Shown here: positions 32,606-48,030 of the stretch, piece by piece
How the letters are laid out: each line of letters opens with the position of its first letter
Numbering within the stretch: position 1 is the stretch's first letter
NCBI GenBank assembly: GCA_016187025.1
Contig: JACPKM010000001.1
Coordinates: 43,188 to 107,187, forward strand
Length of the DNA stretch: 64,000 nucleotides
DNA from: Candidatus Daviesbacteria bacterium
GTDB taxonomy: Bacteria; Patescibacteriota; Microgenomatia; Daviesbacterales; UBA10151
Direction: 5' to 3'
The notes under the pieces: generated by a model
Seen by the model: only the letters and a program-made list of their open reading frames with translations
What the model was told of the DNA's origin: nothing
Database searches by the model: none
Position numbers and translations under genes: made by a program

Positions 32606-33349
32606 TTACTTTAATCGACGGGGTAAAACTCCGTCATATTCTATTTCTTCATTTGGAACTCTTCTGAATGGTTTTTCGCGGACCCACTCTTCAAAGATAT
32701 GGGCAATGAGTCCCACCACCCTGCCGATTATGAAAAAACCCTTTCCCAGTCTATAATCAAAACCCATATCAGATACAACTGCTGCAATTGCCCCGTCTAC
32801 ATTGATAGGGATTTTTTTGCCTTTAAGTCTTTCCAGCTCTGCTTCAACTGCAACTGCCAATTCACAATGTTCACCAAAAAACCCAAGTGTTTTGGCTTTT
32901 TCAAAAACTTGCTTGGCTCTTGGGTCTTCTGTATATACTTTGTGTCCAAAACCGGGAATCCTATCTCCTGAGGATATCACCTTTTCCACCAATTTTGAGG
33001 CTGCAAGACCCATTTGTAAAAGATGCGCACACTCCTCAACCGCCCCGCCGTGATATTCCCCTATTCCTAAAACCCCGGCAGCCACAGCAGCCTGCATGGG
33101 ATTACCTGCTGAAGCAGAGTTTCTGGCGTTTGTCACAGAAGGCGGACCCATGCCGTTATCGATAGTGGAGATTAAAATGCTATCAAGCATTGCTCTTTCT
33201 TTTTCTGTCGGCAGCTCCCCTTTTAATTCCAGCCAGATAGCATCGGTAAAATTTACATTATCTATTAAATCAGTGATTTTGTAGCCGTGGATGTGTACTT
33301 CCCCATCCACAATCCCAGATATTGATGTCTTCCACTTTTTGTCAGACAT
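32606..33349 (-). CDS. citryl-CoA lyase-like protein (citrate synthase C-terminal-domain homolog)
   Basis: From MSDKKW: citrate-synthase catalytic region with GFGHKVY and the D...Vxxx motifs, but only about 247 aa because the CS N-terminal half is missing. The ORF-track start at 33454 is probably spurious. Confidence 0.55.
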   Translation of the reverse strand: MSDKKWKTSISGIVDGEVHIHGYKITDLIDNVNFTDAIWLELKGELPTEKERAMLDSILISTIDNGMGPPSVTNARNSASAGNPMQAAVAAGVLGIGEYHGGAVEECAHLLQMGLAASKLVEKVISSGDRIPGFGHKVYTEDPRAKQVFEKAKTLGFFGEHCELAVAVEAELERLKGKKIPINVDGAIAAVVSDMGFDYRLGKGFFIIGRVVGLIAHIFEEWVREKPFRRVPNEEIEYDGVLPRRLK

Positions 33350-33393
33350 AGTGACAGGTACAGTAAAGGTGACAAGTGACAAGAAATAAAAAT

Positions 33394-33417
33394 AACTTGT
33401 TACTTGTGCCTTGTTAC
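33394..33417. repeat. direct repeat A flanking the four-helix-bundle gene
   Basis: AACTTGTTACTTGTGCCTTGTTAC. Its partner, AACTTGTTACTTGTCACTTGTGCCTTAT, is at 33791-33818. An imperfect long hairpin, GGTGACAAGTGACAAG...CTTGTTACTTGT, lies at 33368-33408. Confidence 0.6.
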
Positions 33418-33420
33418 TAG

Positions 33421-33807
33421 TCACCCTCCTTTCTGAGAAATGTATAGCTTCCAAATTATATGACCTGTTTCAGCTCTTAGCAAGGAGATCTCTTGGAAGT
33501 CTCTATCTGCTACCAATTTTCTTTTATAAGCAAAGTCCAGTAAGTATTCTGTTTCCGCAAGAGAGCCTAACGCTATAGACAGAAACCTATGAAATTCTTT
33601 CTTACTATTCCTTGCGTGACCTTCAACTATATTCGTGGGAACCGATAAACACGCTCTTTGCAGTTGGGAGACTAAGCCAAATATCTCGTTCTTAGGAAAA
33701 GTAAGAGTTAAATCGTATACTTTGTGCACTAGTTCATCAGCTTTTTGCCATGCGATTAGCTTCTTGTAGCCGAACAACGAACTGTTTTCTAACTTGTTAC
33801 TTGTCAC
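33421..33807 (-). CDS. four-helix-bundle protein (23S rRNA intervening-sequence protein family)
   Basis: YKKLIAWQKA...SQLQRACLSVPTNIVEG...FLSIALGSLAETEYLL is typical of PF05635/TIGR02436. Confidence 0.7.
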   Translation of the reverse strand: MTSNKLENSSLFGYKKLIAWQKADELVHKVYDLTLTFPKNEIFGLVSQLQRACLSVPTNIVEGHARNSKKEFHRFLSIALGSLAETEYLLDFAYKRKLVADRDFQEISLLRAETGHIIWKLYISQKGG

Positions 33808-33818
33808 TTGTGCCTTAT
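33791..33818. repeat. direct repeat B flanking the four-helix-bundle gene
   Basis: AACTTGTTACTTGTCACTTGTGCCTTAT; partner of 33394-33417 with one extra CACTTGT heptamer. Confidence 0.6.
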
Positions 33819-34702
33819 CACCTTATCAGTACTGGTATCTCATCCGGAGTCTTGGCAATTTCCACTCCGGCCTCTTTTAAGCTATTAATTTTAGATTTAT
33901 AGCTGCCCTTTTCTCCGTAAACTATTGCCCCTGCATGCCCAAGTTTTGTGCCTTGAGGTAAGTTTTCGGCAAATAGTCCAGAAATAAACGCCACCACTTT
34001 TTTAGTAAACCCTCCACTTTTTATTAATTCTGCTGCTTCTTCCTCATAAGTCCCACCAATTTCTCCAAAGATTACAACAGCTTTTGTTTGTTCATCTTTT
34101 TCAAATTCTTTTAACAAATCTACAAAGGTTGAACCTACTAATATATCCCCGCCAATTCCCACAACGGTCGACTGGCCAATACCGTTTTTTGTTAGAATCC
34201 ATGATACTTCTGAGGCCATCCCTCCTGATTTGGAGATTACTCCAACAGATCCCTTCGAATAAACTCCCCTCGGATCATCACCCCCTATTGAGCCTACTTT
34301 ACCAATACCCGGAGAAATAATACCGATAGATGACGGACCAACCATTTTAACCCCATTTTGCTTGGCTAAAGCAATTGCTTTTGCACTATCTTGAACAGGA
34401 ATATGTTCTGTTAAAACATTTATTAAAGGAATTTTGTTTTTTATGGCTTCTTCCATGGCCCCAAATGCAGCAAAATTTGGGACAGCTATGAAAGAGGTAG
34501 TAATCCCCGGGTGATTTTCTAATGCCTCTGTAATAGAGTTATAAACAGGTACCCCATGCACTTCCTGTCCCCCTTTACCAGGAGTCACACCAGCCAACAC
34601 TTTAGTACCGTAATTTCGCATCTGCAAAGCCACCTTGGACCCTTCTTTGCCTGTTATGCCCTGTATTAAAACTTTAGTTTTATCAGTAACTAGTATTGCC
34701 AT
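33818..34702 (-). CDS. succinyl-CoA synthetase alpha-like / citryl-CoA synthetase small subunit-like (CoA-binding)
   Basis: SucD-type CoA-binding and ligase-CoA domains (VLIQGITGKEGS...; GHAGAIV). Confidence 0.8.
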   Translation of the reverse strand: MAILVTDKTKVLIQGITGKEGSKVALQMRNYGTKVLAGVTPGKGGQEVHGVPVYNSITEALENHPGITTSFIAVPNFAAFGAMEEAIKNKIPLINVLTEHIPVQDSAKAIALAKQNGVKMVGPSSIGIISPGIGKVGSIGGDDPRGVYSKGSVGVISKSGGMASEVSWILTKNGIGQSTVVGIGGDILVGSTFVDLLKEFEKDEQTKAVVIFGEIGGTYEEEAAELIKSGGFTKKVVAFISGLFAENLPQGTKLGHAGAIVYGEKGSYKSKINSLKEAGVEIAKTPDEIPVLIR

Positions 34703-35858
34703 AAGCTAGATCCACCATTGTTTTTGCTGTAGCTGTCATTGGGGTTTCCCGCCCATATATATGAAAATCAAAACCTTCTTTTTCTCCAATCTCTTTTAAA
34801 GCCTCAAAGGCTTCCTTATCCCTTGGCCCTCCCCTCCTGATTACAATTGGATAATTTGGTTTAGGACTCAGTTCCCTTAAACCTTCTACAAATCCCATCA
34901 GGGTTTCAAAAATATCCGTAAAGTTGGCTGTCCCCCCTACAAACCAGCAGCCCTTTAAGTTAGGTTTAGAAAGTACTATTTTTGTTAATCTTTCTAGTTT
35001 CTCTCTGGGAGGATTTCCTGAGTGTTCAGTATAGTTTGCGCTCTTGCCGCCATATGCTACAAGCGCATCCATATTCACAATAGATCCTCCCCCTCCTGCT
35101 GCAATCACTGCAATATCTCCCTCCAAATCCCAATAAACAGAGCCTGCAGTACCACGGTGATCCCCTTCATCTATTTTCCGGGCTTCAATTTCTGCCTCAG
35201 TTGGAGCCCTGCCAAACAAATTCCTTTCAGGAAATTTAATCTCGCGTCTAAAATCAGCATCATCATCCAAAATTATTTTGGCGTCCAACGCCATAATATA
35301 ATTTTGCCCTGAGCGAGCGGAGCGAGTCGAAGGGTTCTTAGCGACTACCAACGGATTAATTTCTGCCAGTTCACAGTCATATTTGGTAAAAACTTCCCAA
35401 AGTTTTTTTGCTGTGCCTTTCAACTCCTCAGGAACATTTTCTCCTAAATATCCCTTTAAGATATCGACCTGGAAAGTTTTCACCTCTTTACCCTCTACTC
35501 CTGTACCTCCTTCACCAAAATTCAAAACCGGTCCTCTTGATTCTGTGGAATAAGAGAATGACAAGTAGTATTCCCTATCATAATCTACCATCTCCTCTAC
35601 TAAAACCTTATCTACTTTTTCTCCATTAACAATCCTGCCAAACAGTTTTTCTACTTCCCCCTTCACGCTTTCCCCTTCACCCTTAACTGTAACTATTCCA
35701 CCTACATCTGCACGCTTACCGGACAAAACCTGGACTTTTAAAACACAGGGTCCTTTAATAGTAACTTCTTCATCCGCCAAAGTTACTAGCTGTGACTGAG
35801 GAACATTTATTCCACAATTTTTAAAAAGTTGTTTTCCTTCAAATTCGTATAAGATCAC
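34683..35858 (-). CDS. succinyl-CoA synthetase beta-like / citryl-CoA synthetase large subunit-like (ATP-grasp)
   Basis: N-terminus MILYEFEGKQLFKNCGINVP resembles SucC/AclB ATP-grasp proteins. It carries the GEGESVKGE motif. Confidence 0.75.
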   Translation of the reverse strand: MILYEFEGKQLFKNCGINVPQSQLVTLADEEVTIKGPCVLKVQVLSGKRADVGGIVTVKGEGESVKGEVEKLFGRIVNGEKVDKVLVEEMVDYDREYYLSFSYSTESRGPVLNFGEGGTGVEGKEVKTFQVDILKGYLGENVPEELKGTAKKLWEVFTKYDCELAEINPLVVAKNPSTRSARSGQNYIMALDAKIILDDDADFRREIKFPERNLFGRAPTEAEIEARKIDEGDHRGTAGSVYWDLEGDIAVIAAGGGGSIVNMDALVAYGGKSANYTEHSGNPPREKLERLTKIVLSKPNLKGCWFVGGTANFTDIFETLMGFVEGLRELSPKPNYPIVIRRGGPRDKEAFEALKEIGEKEGFDFHIYGRETPMTATAKTMVDLAYGNTSY

Positions 35859-35950
35859 TTCGTTAACCTTCCCTTTTTGCTTCGCAAAAACGTAGAAGTA
35901 TGGTATTTAGTATAACGTATGCTGGGTATGATTCCTAATCTTAGCTAAAG

Positions 35951-36022
35951 TAGCAGGGATGGGGCTCGAACCCATAACCTCTTCGTTATGAATGAAGTGC
36001 TCCACCATTGAGCTACCCTGCC
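35951..36022 (-). tRNA. tRNA-Met (anticodon CAT), elongator-like
   Basis: Cloverleaf GGCAGGG-TA-GCTC...GAGC-A-CTTCA-TTCATAA-CGAAG-AGGTT-ATGGG-TTCGAGC-CCCAT-CCCTGCT-A; G1-U72, Y11:R24. Confidence 0.8.
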
Positions 36023-36052
36023 TTATCAGTGCGGGTAAATTTTAACATAATT

Positions 36053-36553
36053 TAGGCTGCATATCTAAGGCCATCAATCCACCCTCTAATCTTAGTTAAT
36101 AATTCGCTACTTCTTCGAACCCTTATCCTCAGGACCCCATAGTATTTTTCTGGATTTTCATATTTTTTCAACCAAATAGATTTGTGATAAAAAGGTTTTT
36201 CAAACTGTTCTTTTGGAATTTTTGTGGTTTTCGACCAAAAATCTTCAATTTGTTCTTTACGATACTCATGTGATTCATTAAATTCAGCTCTTAAAATTAA
36301 TTCTTCCCGTTTTATATCAAAAGACCTTGCGAGTCACTTAATAAAAAATTTCACCATCTGGGGATCAGAGTTGCAGAAACCTACTCTACCCTCCTTCAAA
36401 CTCTTAAACCCTTCTGCCCAATAAAGAGATAAACCTGTCAAAAATAGTTCTTTCTCAGTCAGACGAGCTATTTCCAACTTTGCCTTTTTAAAGACAGTAT
36501 TGGTTCTAGTAACTTTCTCCAGATGCTTCTGCTTCGCTAATTTCCGGAGGTGT
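36053..36553 (-). pseudogene. degraded ORF (frameshifted, no start codon) between two tRNA genes
   Basis: Minus-strand conceptual translation ...LEIARLTEKELFLTGLSLYWAEGFKSLKEGRVGFCNSDPQMVKFFIK* then, after a 1-nt shift, LARSFDIKREELILRAEFNESHEYRKEQIEDFW...GWIDGLRYAA*. Possibly a mobile-element (homing-endonuclease-like) ORF remnant. Confidence 0.3.
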
Positions 36554-36748
36554 TTTATATTTACTTTCCTATCTTTTTAAGACTTCTGCCTTTTTTTTCT
36601 TTGCCTTACTGCTTCTTCGTATTCTATTTGCTTTCTCTTCATTGATTAATAGATATATTTCTATTGTTCATCTATTTAATAGAAGATGTCAATCGTGTTT
36701 GACATCTCTTGGTTAGAAGAATAAAATACAAGAGTTCTTTTACATAAC

Positions 36749-37038
36749 GCGGGGAAGTGTAACGGCTGCACGCGAGGCTCGATTTTGGGCTCTCTCATAA
36801 GCAATTATGCTAGATAACCTGGCTCATAACGGTGGAAACTTCTTCAAAAGTAATACCGTGGGAAGTTTCGATAATATCGGAACCCCGTAACGACTAATAT
36901 TCCAGCTACCGGATAACTCGGAACTAAATTGGAATTATACGCCGGGCTCCTCTGATTAGGGGATGATGGTATAGTCTATTCTTTATTTAACTAAAGAGCA
37001 TAATCTCGCAGTAGTAGGTTCGACTCCTACCCCCGCAA
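36749..37038 (+). tRNA. tRNA(CAU) split by a putative group I intron of about 218 nt in the anticodon loop (exons 36749-36780 and 36999-37038)
   Basis: Exon 1 is CGCGGGG-AA-GTGT-AACGGCT-GCAC-G-CGAGG-CT. Exon 2 is CATAA-TCTCG-CAGTA-GTAGG-TTCGACT-CCTAC-CCCCGCA-A. Joined, they form a canonical cloverleaf with C1-A72 as in initiator tRNA. The 5' exon ends in U and the intron ends in G; the intron contains ACGACUAA, which is P7-like. Confidence 0.5.
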
Positions 37039-37195
37039 CACGGTTGTATTTTGTGCATATAAAGCATGCAGTTGGGCTACTATATAGCCCTTTTCGTTAG
37101 GTTCGAACGCCTTTCCTATTATTGGCGCACCAGCCTTCATGTTTTTAACAATTTTAATGTGAGGATGAGACTGTAAACCCAATTTTTTACCCTTT

Positions 37196-37361
37196 AATGA
37201 ACTACCCCGCAGCAAGTCTTCGACTCCGAGGCTCAGACTCGAGGAGCTGACGGGGTATCGTAAACGAAAGTTCTTGTTACACTATTTTGTGACCGCGCAG
37301 TAAGTCTGCGATCCTGAGTCCTCAGACCGAAGGACTGCTCGGTATTTATGTAACAATAAAG
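37196..37361. ncRNA. conserved structured RNA-like element, copy 2 (expanded helices)
   Basis: Same termini (AATGAACTACCC ... GTAACAATAAAG) and helix order as 16634-16736, with stem-loop insertions and compensatory substitutions. Confidence 0.35.
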
Positions 37362-37543
37362 GTAAGCGACCGGATATGACTAAACTATTACCCGACCTGC
37401 TTTATTCAGATATGCGGCTAGAAGGAGAGAAGATTACCAGAAAACAAGCCAGGGATTTATTTAAATAACTACGGACTTAGGAGGTACTTGCCAAATCCGT
37501 TATAATTCGTTATAATCTGTTATAGTTAGATTATTATAAAACT

Positions 37544-38605
37544 ATGGTTAAAAATCGCAAGTTTGAAAAGAGGATAACTCAACTTCCTCCTGAAATATTT
37601 CTTAAAATAGCTCAGATCGATGAGTTAAAAGGTCAATGGACTGCAGGAGCTAATCTAAACCCCCAACTGTTAGGCAGGCTTAAAAGGTCAGTTTTAATTA
37701 CCTCTACTGGTGCTTCTACAAGAATTGAGGGCTCAAGACTTACTGACGACGACGTTGACAAATTAATGCAAGGTATTGCTATCCAAAAGTTTGCTGATAG
37801 GGATAAACAGGAAGTTCAAGGCTATTTTGAACTCCTCAAAATAATTTTTGATTCCTGGGAACATATTATATTTAGTGAAAATTCCATTAAGCACCTACAT
37901 CAGGAGCTCTTAAAGTATGTGGAAAAGGACCAGGATCACAGAGGTAAATATAAATCACAAGATAATAAGGTTGAAATGGTAGATGAGCAAGGTAGAAGAA
38001 TTGGAGTTATCTTTGACACTACTCCGGCCTACTTAACCCCTAAACAGATGCAGGAGTTAGTTGAATGGACTAAATATGCTTTGGAGGCTAAATTGTCTCA
38101 TCCCCTCATTATCGTAGGCAACTTTTTAGTAGAATACTTAAATATTCACCCATTTAAAGACGGAAATGGTAGACTTTCCAGAATTCTAACTAACCTGCTT
38201 TTACTTCAGTCGGGTTATCTATACATGCCTTATATATCTCACGAGAAGTTAGTTGAGGATCAAAAACCACAATACTATCTTGCATTAAGAAAAAGCCAAA
38301 GAACTTTCAAAAAAGGTGCTGGAGATATAGCTCCCTGGCTTGAGTTCTTTCTAGATATAATTTTAGCCCAATCGAAAGAAGCAATAAGTTTAATGGCTGG
38401 AGAGAATGTAGAGGATATTTTATCTAATAAACAAATTGCAGTCTGGCAATACCTACAAAAGAAAGCTGAATCTACACCTAAGGAAATAGCAAAGGAAACT
38501 AAAGTCGCTTATGCAACTGTGCGCCAAACACTCTCAAAACTACTGGATCTAAAGAAAATTGAGAGAGTCGGAATGGGCAGAAGTTCCCGTTATAGGAAAA
38601 TCTAA
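37544..38605 (+). CDS. Fic-family protein with a C-terminal wHTH
   Basis: Fic motif HPFKDGNGRLSR. Confidence 0.8.
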   Translation: MVKNRKFEKRITQLPPEIFLKIAQIDELKGQWTAGANLNPQLLGRLKRSVLITSTGASTRIEGSRLTDDDVDKLMQGIAIQKFADRDKQEVQGYFELLKIIFDSWEHIIFSENSIKHLHQELLKYVEKDQDHRGKYKSQDNKVEMVDEQGRRIGVIFDTTPAYLTPKQMQELVEWTKYALEAKLSHPLIIVGNFLVEYLNIHPFKDGNGRLSRILTNLLLLQSGYLYMPYISHEKLVEDQKPQYYLALRKSQRTFKKGAGDIAPWLEFFLDIILAQSKEAISLMAGENVEDILSNKQIAVWQYLQKKAESTPKEIAKETKVAYATVRQTLSKLLDLKKIERVGMGRSSRYRKI

Positions 38606-38675
38606 GGTTTTAAAACCCTTTTTTAATGTGTGTTAAGTTGTTAACTTTTTGAAGCTAAATTAGATAGGTAAAAGA

Positions 38676-39269
38676 CTAAAGAATTCTCTTGGGTAGATGG
38701 TATATGTATACAGCACTAGAAAAACAGAGTATCGCCATACTAACAAATAAGGTATTGAAGCCAAATTTTGTAACAATAAATCCACCTATCACTGCTCCAA
38801 TGGCAATTGAAAAGTAGTTCATGGCCTCCCAAGCACCCCACTCTGTAGCAGTTTTTCTTCCATCTAAATGTTCAGAGTAGAGAGCATCAAAAGGAGGATT
38901 ATAAATTGCCTCGCCAAAACCTATCAGTACCTGTACAAGCAAAAGAAACCAGATCGAGCTGACTTGAGTATAAAGTAAGAAACCTATTCCCATGATTGCG
39001 TATCCTAGAACAACAATTAGTTTTTTCTGCTCTAACCTATCAGAGTATTTTCCAGATAGCAGTACTGTTATTCCTGCCACTAATGCGAATGTAGCACCAG
39101 CAAAGCTTGCATCAAGTAAATCTCCACCCACCTTCTCAATAAAAAGAGCATAAATTGGCCCCAGCATGGCTCCAGCTATAAGAATCATAGCGTTAGTAGC
39201 TAAAAGAATTCTAAGAGCCTTATTAAAAAACATCCTCTTGATGTGAAATAGGGAAGAGACCCGTTCCAT
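38676..39269 (-). CDS. MFS-transporter-like membrane protein (half-size, possibly truncated)
   Basis: 197 aa with six predicted TM segments resembling an MFS C-terminal half. Confidence 0.4.
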   Translation of the reverse strand: MERVSSLFHIKRMFFNKALRILLATNAMILIAGAMLGPIYALFIEKVGGDLLDASFAGATFALVAGITVLLSGKYSDRLEQKKLIVVLGYAIMGIGFLLYTQVSSIWFLLLVQVLIGFGEAIYNPPFDALYSEHLDGRKTATEWGAWEAMNYFSIAIGAVIGGFIVTKFGFNTLFVSMAILCFSSAVYIYHLPKRIL

Positions 39270-39492
39270 AAAAAATTACCTATATTAACGATATTGCATA
39301 TAATCCGCATTATCAAGCTATAGATATGCTCAAATACATCATTTATGCCGTATAAAGTTGTGTCTCACCAGCCTATCCTCTGTTTAGGATGGCTGTAGAG
39401 GCAATCTTACTGGTAAGCCGATTGATGAATAAGTATATGGTTAACTCAAGGCCTAAGCACCAAAGTGAAGTCAAAGACTTCCTACTCCGTAG

Positions 39493-39558
39493 TAAAAAAT
39501 TCTGCAATTAAATCAACGATTTAATTGGGTGTATTATGTCTTGCAGTCCCCGCAACAC
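39493..39558. repeat. 66-bp direct repeat, copy 1 (att-like)
   Basis: taaaaaattctgcaattaaatcaacgatttaattgggtgtattatgtcttgcagtccccgcaacaca; identical to 42058-42123. It contains a 10-bp hairpin CAATTAAATC/GATTTAATTG and the core CCCCGCAACAC shared with the tRNA(CAU) 3' end. Confidence 0.8.
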
Positions 39559-39612
39559 AGCTAGATTAGGTTGTTATAATAGCCTAATCTCTTAATTAGT
39601 AAATAGGCTAAA

Positions 39613-40383
39613 TTATCCAAAAACAAATTCTTGCCCAAAATCTTTTACTAATTCCGATTTAGATTCTTCATAAATTGATTTTAACCCTCTTTCCAAGTAA
39701 ATTTGTCTTTGTGTGCGAGAATAATCATTCCAATTACCTTCAATTCTGGCAACCTCTGCTTCATATTTCTTAAGTACAGGTATTCCTCCAAGACCTAACC
39801 AACTAGCAATACCATGTTCAGCATATTTTCCATTTCCACCTAACCAACCATAAGGGGTTTTAGCAACGTCAAATCTCGCAGTAATTCTCGGTCTCACCTC
39901 TATATCTGTACCGCTACCAATTCTAATGGTGCGATTCGGGAATTTAGCAATTGCCCCGTCTGTTAAAGATGGATTTAATTCCTGTTCTACTATGCCTGCA
40001 ATTTGCATCAGATTGTCATGGCTTCCAATATAAACTGTTGCTCCAGATTCCCTATTGCCGTAAAAGTATGTTCCTACCATTGATTCAACTTTAAAATACA
40101 ATCCGTTTACATATAAAAACTGTGCAACATCTCTTTCTTTACCTTTCTCAAAGGCAATATGAATCTTCCAACCACGGGATGAGAACTGAGAGAAAGGACT
40201 TTCATCCTCCGTTGTTTGAAAGTGACCTCTAGGCCCCCATCGTTCTTGCCAGGCTTTTTCAAAGGCTTGCCTGCGATTATCTTTATCCTTATTAAAAATT
40301 GTTGATTGTAATAAAGTATCAGGAGGATTTAGACCTGCTTCATTTCTTTCTAAAGAATCATCCACATGTTGATTATATCTCAA
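39613..40383 (-). CDS. hypothetical protein inside the repeat-bounded segment
   Basis: 256 aa; no family recognised. Confidence 0.3.
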   Translation of the reverse strand: MRYNQHVDDSLERNEAGLNPPDTLLQSTIFNKDKDNRRQAFEKAWQERWGPRGHFQTTEDESPFSQFSSRGWKIHIAFEKGKERDVAQFLYVNGLYFKVESMVGTYFYGNRESGATVYIGSHDNLMQIAGIVEQELNPSLTDGAIAKFPNRTIRIGSGTDIEVRPRITARFDVAKTPYGWLGGNGKYAEHGIASWLGLGGIPVLKKYEAEVARIEGNWNDYSRTQRQIYLERGLKSIYEESKSELVKDFGQEFVFG

Positions 40384-40448
40384 AAATTGGAATAAAAAGT
40401 TCTAACTTCATTCCAACCACTTCCTCTAAACAATGGTATAATGGCCAC

Positions 40449-40709
40449 ATGTTAAAATCTCAAAAAGTTTCGGAATATGAATTACCAATTAAAGTAGAAC
40501 CACAAAAAGAGGGCGGTTTTGTGGTTACTTCTCCAGTTTGGGCAGATTGCTACGCTCAAGGCGACAGTGTAGATGAAGCTATATTAGAAATTACTGCCGT
40601 AGCTCAATCTCTAATTGAATTATATAAAGAAGAAGGTAAACATATCCCCCTTAAGTTACAAAAAGAGGTTGACAACCTCACCTCGGTTCCAGTTATAGTA
40701 GCTACATGA
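40449..40709 (+). CDS. hicB: HicB-family antitoxin
   Basis: UPF0150/HicB-like fold sequence, overlapping hicA by 4 nt. The ORF-track start at 40299 is probably too long. Confidence 0.6.
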   Translation: MLKSQKVSEYELPIKVEPQKEGGFVVTSPVWADCYAQGDSVDEAILEITAVAQSLIELYKEEGKHIPLKLQKEVDNLTSVPVIVAT

Positions 40710-40918
40710 AACCTCTAAGCTATCGGATAGTTATCAAAAAAGCACGCAAAGCAGGTTTTGTTTTCCGTAGAAATACTGGCGGTACCCATGAAATCTGGTG
40801 GAATGAAGATAAAAAGAGAACCTGTGTGATACCTCATCATCATGAGATTAAACCAGGTACACTGAAGAGTATTATTAGGCAGATGGATGTAAGTGAGGAT
40901 AATTTTAGAAAATTATAA
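40706..40918 (+). CDS. hicA: HicA-family mRNA interferase toxin
   Basis: 70 aa; LSYRIVIKKARKAGFVFRRNTGGTHEIW is typical of HicA/YcfA. Confidence 0.75.
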   Translation: MKPLSYRIVIKKARKAGFVFRRNTGGTHEIWWNEDKKRTCVIPHHHEIKPGTLKSIIRQMDVSEDNFRKL

Positions 40919-41106
40919 AATAGGTTCTAATAGCCTCCCGCCCCCGCAAAACGAAAGTTTCCTTAAATTTCTCCATTGGTGATGATTAGATTATAATAAG
41001 AGCTATAATCACTTTTGCTAGTATTGAAACAGCCAGACAAATTATTAAAGACCTATATCCTGAAGCCAAAAACGTCAGGTTTATTGAACATGGTTATGAT
41101 AACTTA

Positions 41107-41925
41107 GTGGGACTTGTTGACAACAAATACGCATTAAAGTTTCCTAGAAATCAATATGCCTACCTTAGAGATCAGTATGAAGAGCAAGTTTTATTAGATC
41201 TAAAATCGCTTAATCAGTTATTAATTCCCAAAATATTAGGCAAAGGTAATAACCCACCTTATTTTATTGCTAGTTTTGTTCCTGGTAAGCATTTAAGTGC
41301 AGATGAAATTAGACAATTATCGACAGAACAACAAGAAGATTTAGCTGAAAAAATCGCCAGATTTGCATACGCAATGCATTCAATACTACCAGTAGATCAG
41401 GCTATAGAGCACCGTAGTAAATTAAAACTTGATTCTCTGAAAGGACAACCTTGGGTGATATATTTTGAAGAATCTTTAAAAAAAGTGGCTTTTCCTAATC
41501 CCCGGCAAGATAGGCTAGCTAAAGAATATTATAAAAGGTGGAAATCTTTACATTACGATACCCCTGAGGTAGTTGTACACGATGATATACATAATGAGAA
41601 CTTAATGTTTGAGGGGACTAATTTAATTGGTGTAGTTGATTTTGGAGACACGGATATTGGTCATCCTGAACAGGAATTTAGACAGATGTACCGAATAAAT
41701 GAGACAATTTTAAATTTAGTGATTAAAAATTATGAGCAACTTTCGAATCTCAAACTAAATAAAGAAGCCATTATACTTTTCGCTATACTCCAAGAGCTAG
41801 CAGTATACTCTGAGATGCTAACAAGTACTAAAAAAGATCGCCCCTCATTTTATAGGGCCACAAAAAACCTTCAAAAATGGTTACCCGAGGGTAATTGGGA
41901 AAATGATACTACCCCTTTTTTATAG
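41107..41925 (+). CDS. aminoglycoside/small-molecule phosphotransferase (APH) family kinase
   Basis: Brenner motif VVHDDIHNENLMF and the D-F-G region VDFGDTDIGHPEQEF. The in-frame upstream sequence looks like a genuine APH N-terminus but lacks a canonical start. Confidence 0.7.
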   Translation: MGLVDNKYALKFPRNQYAYLRDQYEEQVLLDLKSLNQLLIPKILGKGNNPPYFIASFVPGKHLSADEIRQLSTEQQEDLAEKIARFAYAMHSILPVDQAIEHRSKLKLDSLKGQPWVIYFEESLKKVAFPNPRQDRLAKEYYKRWKSLHYDTPEVVVHDDIHNENLMFEGTNLIGVVDFGDTDIGHPEQEFRQMYRINETILNLVIKNYEQLSNLKLNKEAIILFAILQELAVYSEMLTSTKKDRPSFYRATKNLQKWLPEGNWENDTTPFL

Positions 41926-42057
41926 TGTTGAATTTGTTGACTTTTGTGCCTAAAAGTTCTTTTTTATATGTGGTGTCCGATTGTCCGAATAGCAGATTTA
42001 AAAAACAGGTTTTAAATATAGGGTAAACTGCATGATTTGTAGCTATTAGGCACTAAA

Positions 42058-45558: not shown

Positions 45559-45637
45559 TTGGTGAGCGGACCAGGACTCGAACCTGGAACCGGATGGATA
45601 TAAGCCATCTGCTCTGCCATTGAGCTATCCGCCCTTG
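45559..45637 (-). tRNA. tRNA-Ile (anticodon TAT/UAU) with an encoded CCA
   Basis: GGGCGGA-TA-GCTC-AATGGCA-GAGC-A-GATGG-CTTATAT-CCATC-CGGTT-CCAGG-TTCGAGT-CCTGG-TCCGCTC-A-CCA. Confidence 0.8.
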
Positions 45638-45654: not shown

Positions 45655-48030
45655 TCAAAGGCGAGCTCTTTGAACAATCTCTGCCTCAACCTTTACAGAG
45701 TCTCTTCCAAATTTTAGCCTTGATAGCTCTTTTATAGCCTGGGCAATTTGGAGATTTTTCATTTTATTTATCTTGTCAAAATCAGGCCTGGTATTAATAG
45801 AAAAGGGTACCACTGGCTCTCCGTTGACAATAGTTTTAACATAAGTATTAAATATTTCGACATTTACCAAATCTCTTTCAGAAAAAATAGGTGAAAACTC
45901 ATGTTGCAGGTAATTGGCATCTGTTACACCCACCCTAAAAGCAATTAAAGTACCAACATTTCCAAAAACAGCATTTTTTAGCTCTTCTCCAATCTGGCCA
46001 ATAAACTGGTTTGCAACAATTAGATTAAGTCTATACTTTCTTGCCTCAGACAATATTTCTGCAAATGTTTCTGTGGCAAAGTTTTGAAACTCATCTACAT
46101 ACAGGTAAAAATCCCGTCTTTGATCCATGGGCATATTTGCCCGGGACATTGCAGCTTGTAAAATCTTTGGCACCAAAATAAGTCCTAAGAAGTTGGAGTT
46201 TTCCTCCCCCATTTTTCCTTTTGATAAATTCATAATCAAAATTTTTCCATTATCCATGACATCTCTTAAATCAAATGAGGAATAACTTTGACCAATGATA
46301 TTTCTCATCATTTTGTTGGTAACAAAGCGGCCAAATTTAGAAACTGTGTAATCCAGCACCTCTGATTTGTGAAAGTCTGAGGTTTGGGCAATTTGATCAG
46401 TCCAGTAACGCCTAACAACAGCATCCTGTACTAAAGGCAAAAGCTCGCGGACAAACTCCGGATCTGTCATGATTCTCATTACCTCAACAAATGTACTGCC
46501 AGGCTTGGACATTACTGTTAGCATGGCATTTCTTACCCCATGCTCAAACCGGGGACCAATAATTCCGGTTTTGTTAGGATCAAAAAGCTTATACATTAAC
46601 CCGATGATTGAGGCTGTGACAAAATGTTTCTCCTGTTCAGATTTTGCCTCTAACATGTTTAAGCCAAAGGGTCTTTGCAAATCTGAAGGGTCAAAATAAA
46701 TTACATCTTCTGCTCTTTCAGGCGGTATTAGCTGAAGCAGGTCCTCTGCAGCGTCACCGTGTGGGTCAATAAAACAAACTCCTTTACCGGCATATATATC
46801 TTGCAAAAGCATAGCAAGCAACAGCTGAGTTTTTCCCATACCGGTCCGTCCTACGATATACATATGCCTTCTTCTGTCTTCTTCTCCGATAAAAATTGAC
46901 CTGGTTACCCCTCTAAAGATAGATTTGCCGATAAACATACCTGAAGATGGTATTTTTTCTGGAGCCGGAGCTTTTTTTGCATCTAGCCAGCTGATGTGAG
47001 GAGTTTCTATTGACTTATTAGGCAGATGAAAAATTGTTGATAGCTCATCGGGAGTTAAAACTGAAGGTGTAGCGTATTTTGGCTGATAACGATAAATTAA
47101 ATCAGTCATAAAGCCTTTCTCAGATGAAACTTTGGCTCCGGTAAACCCGTTATATGGACCATTAAACTGCTCAAAAGCGCTTTTCATATTGTTTAAATGA
47201 GCTTTAGCACTTTCTTTGGAGGTTGATGATGTAGCCAGTCTGATGGTTGCATAAAAACCACCTCTGGAAACCTTGGTTTCCACAGCCTCAAGCTGCTTGG
47301 CATCCGGAGGAGGTTTGGGATTATCAGGCTTTCCTGGATCTTTTTCTTTCTTTAACCAGCTTTTTCCTTTATCTTTCCATTTACTATCTGCCGGAGAAAT
47401 GATTAGTTGAACTGTTGCCCCTTCACTGGGCTGCATTTTTCCCAAGGCGGAAGTTAAAGCAGAGAGCGGATCGGTTGGTAAATCACGGTAAGTTTTTATA
47501 GGAAAATAGTCAGCGTTTTTAAGCTTAAATGATGAGTAGGCTGTAAAACCGTTTTCTGTAAAAATATTATACTCTGGTACTTCTTTGATCTCTGCATCCG
47601 GATAAGCTCCATTTATTTGTTTTTCCACCAAGTCTTGTAAGGATTTATGGCAGGAAATAAAAAACCTGATAGATTCATGTAAAGCAACTATTTCAAAAGA
47701 AAGATGAGGTTGAGGTTTAAAAGCCTCAAACAAACCACCTGATTTTCTCAAAGATGCAAGTGTTGCAAACATTTGTTCAGCTGCATCGATTTTAATCTCA
47801 TTACCTCTTGGAGCTTTAATTTGTAATAAAACAAACTGAAGAGAAGCTTTTTCCCTATCTTTGTATTTTATCCAGCCAACGAAATATTTCCTCAGGTAAA
47901 GAGTAAGTCCAATCAAAGCCATTACCAAAGCAACGATCCCCAAAACCGCCATTATCAAACTTAAGAAATCAGGACCTATTGCAGCTGTAGATCCACCTAC
48001 AGGTGCAACAACTTGTGGTGCAACCTCCAT
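45655..48030 (-). CDS. VirD4/TraD/TraG-like P-loop ATPase (type IV coupling-protein-like)
   Basis: N-terminal TM segment, Walker A IVGRTGMGKTQ, then DPHGD. 791 aa. Confidence 0.5.
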   Translation of the reverse strand: MEVAPQVVAPVGGSTAAIGPDFLSLIMAVLGIVALVMALIGLTLYLRKYFVGWIKYKDREKASLQFVLLQIKAPRGNEIKIDAAEQMFATLASLRKSGGLFEAFKPQPHLSFEIVALHESIRFFISCHKSLQDLVEKQINGAYPDAEIKEVPEYNIFTENGFTAYSSFKLKNADYFPIKTYRDLPTDPLSALTSALGKMQPSEGATVQLIISPADSKWKDKGKSWLKKEKDPGKPDNPKPPPDAKQLEAVETKVSRGGFYATIRLATSSTSKESAKAHLNNMKSAFEQFNGPYNGFTGAKVSSEKGFMTDLIYRYQPKYATPSVLTPDELSTIFHLPNKSIETPHISWLDAKKAPAPEKIPSSGMFIGKSIFRGVTRSIFIGEEDRRRHMYIVGRTGMGKTQLLLAMLLQDIYAGKGVCFIDPHGDAAEDLLQLIPPERAEDVIYFDPSDLQRPFGLNMLEAKSEQEKHFVTASIIGLMYKLFDPNKTGIIGPRFEHGVRNAMLTVMSKPGSTFVEVMRIMTDPEFVRELLPLVQDAVVRRYWTDQIAQTSDFHKSEVLDYTVSKFGRFVTNKMMRNIIGQSYSSFDLRDVMDNGKILIMNLSKGKMGEENSNFLGLILVPKILQAAMSRANMPMDQRRDFYLYVDEFQNFATETFAEILSEARKYRLNLIVANQFIGQIGEELKNAVFGNVGTLIAFRVGVTDANYLQHEFSPIFSERDLVNVEIFNTYVKTIVNGEPVVPFSINTRPDFDKINKMKNLQIAQAIKELSRLKFGRDSVKVEAEIVQRARL

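Follow-up and report, generated by a model that had tools for sequence, protein, structure and literature searches.

Group I introns in initiator tRNA genes have been known since the 1990s, and the cyanobacterial tRNA-fMet intron is said to have been described by Biniszkiewicz, Cesnaviciene and Shub in 1994. A preprint by Williams (bioRxiv 10.1101/2020.01.27.920355) distinguishes four classical classes of bacterial tRNA introns, including fMet.2Ug, which is located after U33, the second base of the anticodon loop, and it describes metagenomic assemblies from unnamed phyla as rich in tRNA introns. Here we analyse a stretch of 64,000 nt (the window) from Candidatus Daviesbacteria bacterium (assembly GCA_016187025.1, contig JACPKM010000001.1), which harbors a split tRNA(CAU) gene. 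The explanation that we propose, with a probability of about 80%, is that a single-copy tRNA(CAU) gene of Microgenomates, probably that of the initiator, is interrupted between U33 and C34 by a self-splicing group I intron of 219 nt. The host tRNA(CAU) shows initiator features, and its intron is located between bases 33 and 34; because U33/C34 is the fMet.2Ug site, the arrangement as such is known and not new. The analysis extends it to a sub-lineage of the Microgenomates and leaves the general knowledge of group I introns unchanged.

With the cyanobacterial fMet.2Ug introns the locus shares a CAU host tRNA with an initiator-type acceptor stem, the U33/C34 site with U-1 and a terminal G, the P1 architecture GCUCA/UGGGC and the self-splicing group I type (predicted for the window) with a length of about 200-250 nt in the absence of an open reading frame (ORF). 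There are also differences. BLAST of the window intron against Tpc1.fMet.2Ug and against the introns of loci L031 and L102 yielded no match longer than a 10-mer, and J3/4-P4 and J8/7 belong to the 'AUAACGGUG...AAUACCGUGGGAA...GGUAUAGUC' type of tRNA and transfer-messenger RNA (tmRNA) introns from the Candidate Phyla Radiation (CPR) and not to the cyanobacterial 'AAAUUCGGGGAA...AAUCCCGAGCC' type. Moreover, P7 and P3' of the window intron are separated by an additional domain of two helices, and the host tRNA exhibits an unusual D arm and an anticodon stem of au/GC/gu instead of GC/GC/GC. The core sequence type is the same as in the CPR tRNA introns of Williams 2020 (Gba28.Ile2.2Ug, Mba143.Tyr.4Ug, Pgr210.Thr.2Ug), whose hosts, to judge from the three-letter seed names, appear to belong to the same radiation as the window host. 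Gba28.Ile2.2Ug also has the same P1 and insertion position 2. Weak BLAST matches of the window intron were confined to CPR-type seeds, Tsu4.tmRNA and CPR family loci. Unlike the CPR introns of Williams, the window and seven relatives carry a specific insert of 42 nt. The site is thus classical, while the lineage of the intron appears, from its sequence, to be of the CPR type.

Two further systems are comparable. The Azoarcus tRNA-Ile(CAU) intron (Ile2.5Ug, subgroup IC3) is likewise small (about 205 nt), ORF-less and located in the anticodon loop of a bacterial CAU tRNA, and it has GNRA tetraloops on P2 and P9, as in most members of the window's family. It differs in its location after U36 instead of U33, its tRNA identity, the absence of P7-P3' helices and the lack of BLAST similarity. 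The tmRNA introns of Clostridium and Thermoanaerobacter (Cbo40.tmRNA and Tsu4.tmRNA of Williams' seeds) also possess extra hairpins between P7 and P3', which end in AACACGCC, and a 'AUCGGUGAAA...AAUACCGA' core that resembles that of the window. However, they reside in the T loop of tmRNA, and their extra hairpins are larger, with no demonstrable homology to the window insert. Global pairwise alignment to the published seed introns returned 78-85% 'identity' for every seed; as it did not discriminate between them, BLAST was used.

Structure of the split tRNA(CAU) gene

The layout of the gene is as follows.

36699..36727, plus strand: promoter-like site TTGACA-17 nt-TAAAAT, 11 of 12 consensus positions matched (consensus match)
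36748..36779, plus strand: 5' exon, tRNA positions 1-33, letters CGCGGGGAAGUGUAACGGCUGCACGCGAGGCU
36780..36998, plus strand: group I intron of 219 nt between U33 and C34, ending in G (Rfam RF00028; model built from relatives; covariation)
36999..37038, plus strand: 3' exon, tRNA positions 34-73, letters CAUAAUCUCGCAGUAGUAGGUUCGACUCCUACCCCCGCAA
37074..37095, plus strand: terminator-like hairpin GGGCUA-CUAUA-UAGCCC (37074-37090), followed by UUUUCG (consensus match)

The joined exons (36748-36779 and 36999-37038) form a tRNA(CAU) of 72 nt, as established by reading the sequence and by script, and ARAGORN identifies the joined sequence as tRNA-Met(CAT). The 5' exon consists of the acceptor strand CGCGGGG, A8 and A9, the D arm GUGU-AACGGCU-GCAC, G26, CGAGG and C32 U33. 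It is followed in the 3' exon by the CAU anticodon, A37 and A38, UCUCG, the variable loop CAGUA, the T arm GUAGG-UUCGACU-CCUAC, CCCCGCA and A73; CCA is not encoded after A73, the next bases being CAC. A script check showed pairing at 6/7 positions of the acceptor stem (with the C1xA72 mismatch), 4/4 of the D stem (GUGU/GCAC) and 5/5 of the T stem, and the anticodon stem CGAGG/UCUCG pairs at 5/5 positions when read by eye. An earlier note, made from the letters of this DNA, had proposed a tRNA(CAU) with precisely such a cloverleaf, C1xA72 and A73, split by a small group I intron that follows U33 and has G as its last base, and the data presented below bear it out. Its 3' half lies where it had been placed. 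The sequence given for the 5' half was likewise right, but the coordinates (36749-36780) were one base too high and the resulting splice gave no tRNA; the intron has 219 nt and not 218.

A spacer of 20 nt separates the upstream promoter-like site from the start of the tRNA, and together with the terminator-like hairpin this site provides putative promoter-to-terminator flanking of the gene at the consensus level; a promoter role of 36699-36727 is suggested by this match to the consensus.

Standard tools overlook the locus. ARAGORN (including its intron search) and Rfam at gathering scores see no tRNA in the unspliced DNA, and the only tRNAs that they report are tRNA-Met(CAT) at 35950-36022 and tRNA-Ile(TAT) at 45560-45634, both on the minus strand. 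Both the tRNA and the intron also escape a whole-window Rfam search at E<=1. The genome would therefore seem to be without this tRNA(CAU), probably its initiator.

The group I core and its insert

The Rfam Intron_gpI search that the earlier note had suggested delivered a full-length match (model 1-253, window 36770-36997; 601-nt search) with E=1.5e-4, but its score of 26 bits is below the gathering threshold of 50 bits. Further evidence comes from homologous loci. We scanned one genome per species (GTDB) for the P7 strand, the terminal G, CAUAA and the T arm at the right spacing and obtained at least 119 loci. The matches listed contain about 80 split tRNA(CAU) genes with an identical exon junction and introns of 175-284 nt, and most of these loci belong to Microgenomates of the CPR (Woese-, Davies-, Roizman- and Shapirobacteria). 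Ten other loci among them have a 5' half identical to that of the window, whose exons are intact and agree with the family consensus. The gathering score of Rfam is exceeded by eight close or family relatives and two cyanobacterial loci (53-90 bits). A covariance model built from seven Rfam-validated relatives, with the window left out (model R2), located the intron core at 36813-36982 with 53.3 bits and E about 1.4e-12, which is the sole significant match in the 64 kb.

Covariation was assessed in 15 sequences aligned with MAFFT, based on a structure comprising P1, P2, P3, P4, P6, P6a, the P7 pseudoknot and the two extra helices. A standard pair is formed in 97.5% of the cells of the 48 proposed pairs, and compensatory changes occur at 23 of them. 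None of 500 shuffles was as good, and only 30-49% of the cells paired when the partners were slid by 1-3 columns. P7 (GACU/AGUC and an A-U pair) is invariant and therefore uninformative in this respect; a P7 with a bulged base beside a G-C pair is a textbook element of group I introns. P5, P8 and P9 were not counted, because their MAFFT registers differ between sequences, and their support comes from per-sequence folding. The minimum free energy (MFE) fold of the window independently recovered P1, P3, P4, P5, P6, both insert helices, P8 and P9 (z=-2.4). The window differs from its relatives at only three of the columns conserved in at least 13 of the 14; two of these changes retain pairing or the GNRA loop, and the third falls on column 92, within the part of P5 for which MAFFT gave the window a wrong register.

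Several observations weigh against an intact group I intron. Apart from the sub-threshold score, the Rfam match is gone in scans of the whole 64-kb window, even at E<=1, and Rfam alone is suggestive but not sufficient. P5 consists of just four A-U-rich pairs, L9 lacks the GNRA loop of most relatives, and P10 comprises just 2 bp. Taking all data together, we regard it as virtually certain that the intervening sequence is a group I intron and, as far as its sequence allows a judgement, as quite probable that it is still able to splice.

The following elements were located in the intron.

36776..36791, plus strand: P1 hairpin, exon G30 G31 C32 U33 and intron C1 G2 against the guide UGGGCU (36786-36791), 6/6 pairs
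36793..36812, plus strand: P2, UCUCAUAA/UUAUGCUA, 6/8 pairs, GCAA tetraloop at 36801-36804 (script check)
36818..36823, plus strand: P3 5' strand CCUGGC, 6/6 pairs with 36941-36946
36829..36859, plus strand: P4 (ACGGU/ACCGU) around a short P5 (ACUU/AAGU), J4/5 GGAA, J5/4 AAU (script check, fold)
36860..36886, plus strand: P6 (GGG/CCC) and P6a (GUUUCGAU/AUCGGAAC) (script check, fold, covariation)
36890..36895, plus strand: P7 5' strand, A111, bulged C112, G113 A114 C115 U116 (script check)
36898..36939, plus strand: extra two-helix domain between P7 and P3' (covariation, model R1)
36941..36946, plus strand: P3 3' strand GCCGGG (script check, covariation)
36948..36963, plus strand: P8 hairpin UCCUCU-GAUU-AGGGGA (script check, fold)
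36964..36977, plus strand: J8/7 (UGAUGGUA) and P7 3' strand (UAGUC U) (Rfam alignment)
36980..36997, plus strand: P9 hairpin UCUUUA-UUUAAC-UAAAGA (script check, fold)
36998, plus strand: terminal G of the intron (omega-G) at the 3' splice site, an invariant G before CAUAA in 15/15 aligned sequences

The ORF list contains no ORF inside the 219 nt, and neither a bulge-helix-bulge motif nor terminal repeats were seen when they were read by eye. The wobble at the 5' splice site, U33 (36779).G (36788), is kept in all 15 sequences. The register of P1 (U33.G, C32-G, G31-C, G30-U/C, C(+1)-G and A/G(+2)-U) is 98-100% paired across this set and corresponds to that of the curated fMet.2Ug seed of Williams; the register of the Rfam alignment, in which only 67% of the cells pair without any covariation, was rejected in its favor. 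P2 shows compensatory changes at all eight pairs across the family, P3 is 100% paired in the 15 sequences with compensatory changes at three pairs, and the outer pair of P4 is U-A in one subgroup and A-U in the other (8 vs 7 sequences). The P7-like segment recognized in the earlier note, ACGACUAA (36890-36897), indeed holds the P7 5' strand. GACU/AGUC is identical in 15/15 sequences, and by analogy with other group I introns G113-C197 beside the bulged C112 would be the expected guanosine-binding pair. A160 (36939) pairs with U193 (36972) and closes P7. J8/7 and the P7 3' strand represent the most conserved segment of group I introns; in the window this segment, UGAUGGUAUAGUC, agrees with the Rfam consensus UgAAGAUAUAGUCu, and GUAUAGUC is invariant in the alignment. 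P9 of the window is devoid of the GUAA tetraloop carried by most relatives. Finally, 36804-36811 (AUUAUGCU) and 36997-37004 (AGCAUAAU), i.e., the P2 3' strand and the 3' splice junction, exhibit a perfect complementarity of 8 bp, and the MFE fold favors this pairing over P2. It is probably due to chance, because it is not conserved in the relatives by eye, but it could compete with correct folding.

The extra domain between the P7 5' strand and the P3 3' strand, which had not been recognized in the earlier note, is an insert of 42 nt present in the window and seven relatives (L043, L044, L056, L075, L094, L098, L112). It is composed of an outer helix of 7 bp (AUUCCAG/UUGGAAU, 36899-36905 with 36929-36935) and an inner helix of 4-5 bp (CCGG(A)/(C)UCGG, 36909-36913 with 36917-36921), with conserved internal loops. 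Both helices are 98-100% paired, and compensatory changes at 7 of the 11 pairs argue for selection on the insert. A model of the insert (R1) scores 54.9 bits in the window and detects just the window and the seven training loci but none of the other 112 loci listed. All eight insert-bearing introns fall below the Rfam threshold, whereas eight of the nine close relatives without it pass at 53-90 bits, L049 being the exception. The low Rfam score of the window intron is thus probably a consequence of the insert. This constitutes a blind spot of detection, which family-specific models overcome by recovering the window copy with E about 1e-12. Judging from its sequence, the insert is probably a lineage-specific peripheral domain; a stabilization of the core is probable because P5 is short and L9 lacks a GNRA loop. 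As Williams' seed alignment shows, other bacterial introns of tRNA and tmRNA genes also have helices at this position, and the insert is therefore a variant and not a new kind of element.

The splicing pathway that we propose combines the observed sequence and structure elements with a chemistry adopted entirely from the group I paradigm. Transcription would proceed from the promoter-like site (36699-36727) to the hairpin at 37074-37090, and the intron would fold into P1-P9 with the P3/P7 pseudoknot. The guide UGGGCU would pair with exon G30-U33 and the first two intron bases, thereby presenting the U33.G wobble at the 5' splice site. Cleavage after U33 would then be effected by a free guanosine that occupies G113-C197 of P7. 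Subsequently, the terminal G (36998) would enter the same pocket, while C34 and A35 displace C1 and G2 of the intron on the guide and form the P10 of 2 bp. The attack of the U33 3'-OH after the terminal G would join the exons and create the anticodon loop CUCAUAA. The 72-nt product would be trimmed at its ends, receive CCA, be charged by methionyl-tRNA synthetase, and be formylated and used for initiation, the last two steps being proposed because of C1xA72.

Identity of the tRNA and alternative explanations

Splicing of the intron and the initiator function of the tRNA are both inferred, and one argument for the latter is the acceptor stem. It combines C1xA72, i.e., the absence of a Watson-Crick pair at 1:72, with G2-C71, C3-G70 and A73, and the stem CGCGGGG/CCCCGCA with A73 is one that we take to be equal to that of E. 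coli tRNA-fMet. C1xA72 is a hallmark of bacterial initiators and is incompatible with normal use of EF-Tu. The split tRNA is most likely an initiator tRNA-fMet, but a number of features disagree with this assignment. As already stated in the earlier note, further hallmarks of initiators are missing: the positions of the three G-C pairs (29-41, 30-40, 31-39) are occupied by A-U, G-C and G.U, and 11:24 is U:A instead of A11:U24. A8 is found in place of U8, the D arm (GUGU/GCAC) is unusual, and one apparently related CPR intron is labelled 'Ile2.2Ug' in Williams' seed alignment, so that isotype models may not call the split tRNA fMet. Part of this conflict is lessened by the literature and by the relatives. 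The au/GC/gu anticodon stem occurs in natural initiator tRNAs, and G30-C40, which is critical and suffices on its own in E. coli (PMC5389676), is kept in the split tRNA. A11:U24 is present within a standard-looking D arm (GAGC/GCUC) in L056, L075, L094, L098 and L112, which have the same insert-bearing type of intron.

When metagenomes were searched for copies of the odd tRNA(CAU) that lack the intron, at least 120 matches were obtained (L121-L240), and in all 120 listed the anticodon loop is uninterrupted. Among these, 103 parse as complete tRNAs of 69-72 nt, in which position 1:72 is U:A in 58, C:A in 41, A:A in three and U:G in one, but never a strong pair. The tRNA of this odd type has 69-72 nt, an invariant GUGU/GCAC D stem, a D loop of 5-7 nt, a variable loop of 4-5 nt and, of the three G-C pairs, just G30-C40. 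As a side observation, a D loop with GG coincides with a T loop UUC/UCC in 78/78 and a D loop with AG with CGC/UGC in 24/24 of the intron-less tRNAs listed, which looks like a switch of the 18:55 elbow pair from G:U to A:G. The exons of L118 (2878-3133), which has an intron of 184 nt, and of the intron-less L177 differ by a single base (G/A in the T loop). The presence of the intron in one of two nearly identical tRNAs indicates that it is gained or lost on short timescales. We tentatively consider the possibility, although we would not bet on it, that the tRNA is a structurally reduced, undescribed initiator of Microgenomates in which the intron has been gained and lost repeatedly, with the two-helix domain being private to the sub-lineage of the window. 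If the split gene is then the sole initiator gene, translation initiation would depend on a guanosine-dependent ribozyme, which could make the availability of initiator tRNA follow the pool of guanosine nucleotides. This widespread reduced tRNA(CAU) is the more interesting by-product of our analysis.

Split tRNA(CAU) genes of a different kind were also encountered in Pirellula and its relatives (L010, L042, L069, L072, L083, L099, L103, L107, L117), where an exon-pairing heuristic places sequences of 290-450 nt at U33/C34 of another tRNA(CAU) with a standard G1-C72 stem (GGGACC.../...GGUCCUA), which is Ile2-like by eye.

If the intron is real but its host is not the initiator, the tRNA could be an elongator tRNA-Met or a tRNA-Ile2, in which TilS turns C34 into lysidine. 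In its anticodon loop and stem, CUCAUAAUC, it is closer to elongator Met and Ile2 than to the CUCAUAACC of canonical initiators, and the 11:24 pair as well as the presence of only G30-C40 point in the same direction, even though A11:U24 in close relatives with the same intron and the natural occurrence of au/GC/gu initiators reduce their weight. The seed Gba28.Ile2.2Ug, with the same P1 (GGCUCA/UGGGCC) and a similar core, was typed as Ile2 by tRNAscan-SE. U1-A72 is found in more than half of the intron-less relatives listed, and some elongators share this pair; on the other side stand the C1xA72 mismatch of the window and the lack of a strong 1:72 pair in all 103 listed. The gene inventory also speaks for the initiator. 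The trio of tRNA-Met(CAU), split tRNA(CAU) and tRNA-Ile(UAU) occurs in the window and in many relatives, and with a separate tRNA-Met(CAU) and tRNA-Ile(UAU) nearby, the decoding of AUA does not require a CAU tRNA. tRNA-Ile(UAU) is found in at least ten Microgenomates loci (L120, L050, L008, L098, L075, L044, L080, L049, L024, L118), which suggests that Microgenomates carrying it read AUA with this tRNA and not with a lysidine tRNA. No TilS-like protein was found in a scan of 30 ORFs, which represent a minority of those in the window. Altogether, a host tRNA other than the initiator is unlikely. tRNA-Ile with a UAU anticodon is, to our knowledge, rare in bacteria. In the tRNA-Met(CAT) of the window (35950-36022, minus strand), G1 and U72 form a wobble pair, and the Rfam alignment flags an A31xC39 mismatch at the lower end of the anticodon stem.

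Alternatively, the intron might be decaying and dead for splicing, the tRNA gene a pseudogene, and the initiator supplied by another locus. This very improbable scenario would agree with the sub-threshold Rfam score, the shortened P5, the non-GNRA L9 and the 2x2 internal loop of P2, and the 8-bp pairing described above could sequester the 3' splice site; moreover, alleles of this tRNA that lack the intron are frequent among related organisms. Yet the low score tracks the insert, which shows compensatory changes of its own, all core nucleotides conserved in the relatives are intact and every core helix is fully paired. The exons are intact too, and near-consensus promoter-like and terminator-like signals flank the gene. 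The absence of any intron, with tRNA-like halves flanking a spacer by chance or with an insertion that is not catalytic (for instance, a mobile element or an intron spliced by proteins), would explain why standard tools report nothing at the locus. This explanation is refuted by the scores of the homologues, the covariation that backs a pseudoknotted group I core and the R2 match (E about 1e-12), and it has a practically negligible likelihood given that the joined exons represent a valid tRNA and that about 80 of the split genes listed share the junction. An initiator tRNA gene with a functional group I intron thus remains our preferred explanation.

Genomic neighborhood

The window represents a bacterial chromosome. 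It shares 65-88% amino-acid identity (tblastx) and gene order with Microgenomates loci, and it contains chromosomal genes for citryl-CoA synthetase and lyase, FtsH, CarB, a class I tRNA synthetase (Trp/Tyr family) and DNA polymerase I. A phage origin was rejected, as blastn of 35800-38700 against 50,697 phage records gave no match. A genomic island was dismissed as well, since the TraG/HerA-like gene, a XerC/D-like recombinase and tRNA-Ile(UAU) are all conserved neighbors in other Microgenomates. The tRNA-Ile(UAU) gene (45560-45634, minus strand) adjoins the gene for a TraG/TrwB/HerA-like ATPase of 791 aa (45655-48030, minus strand), and a homologue of this ATPase (65-88% amino-acid identity) lies beside tRNA-Ile(UAU) wherever the coordinates were checked, e.g., in L120 and L050. 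The split tRNA and the conserved ATPase gene are separated by about 2 kb in L120 (checked locus) vs 8.6 kb in the window. Genes for a Fic-domain protein with a C-terminal winged helix, an MFS transporter fragment of 197 aa and an aminoglycoside-phosphotransferase-like kinase occupy 37544-42000 between the split tRNA and the conserved neighbors, and this stretch may represent a local insertion.

Many metagenome-assembled genomes labelled as 'uncultured Gammaproteobacteria' or 'Pseudomonadales' were found to carry the Microgenomates-type tRNA and intron (L005, L006, L009, L017, L041, L043, L049, L080, L112, L118 and others). Several of those checked share the neighboring genes of the window, one of them with a chromosome of 615 kb, and their taxonomic labels look wrong.

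Three adjacent genes at 32606-35858 (minus strand) resemble those for citryl-CoA synthetase (ATP-grasp/citrate-binding and CoA-ligase subunits) and citryl-CoA lyase. In a lineage known for its minimal metabolism, enzymes that cleave citrate would not be expected. Between the citryl-CoA genes lies an ORF of 128 aa (33421-33807, minus strand), which has a counterpart in L001 (1333-1719) and matches the Pfam family 23S_rRNA_IVP and, weakly, bAvd.

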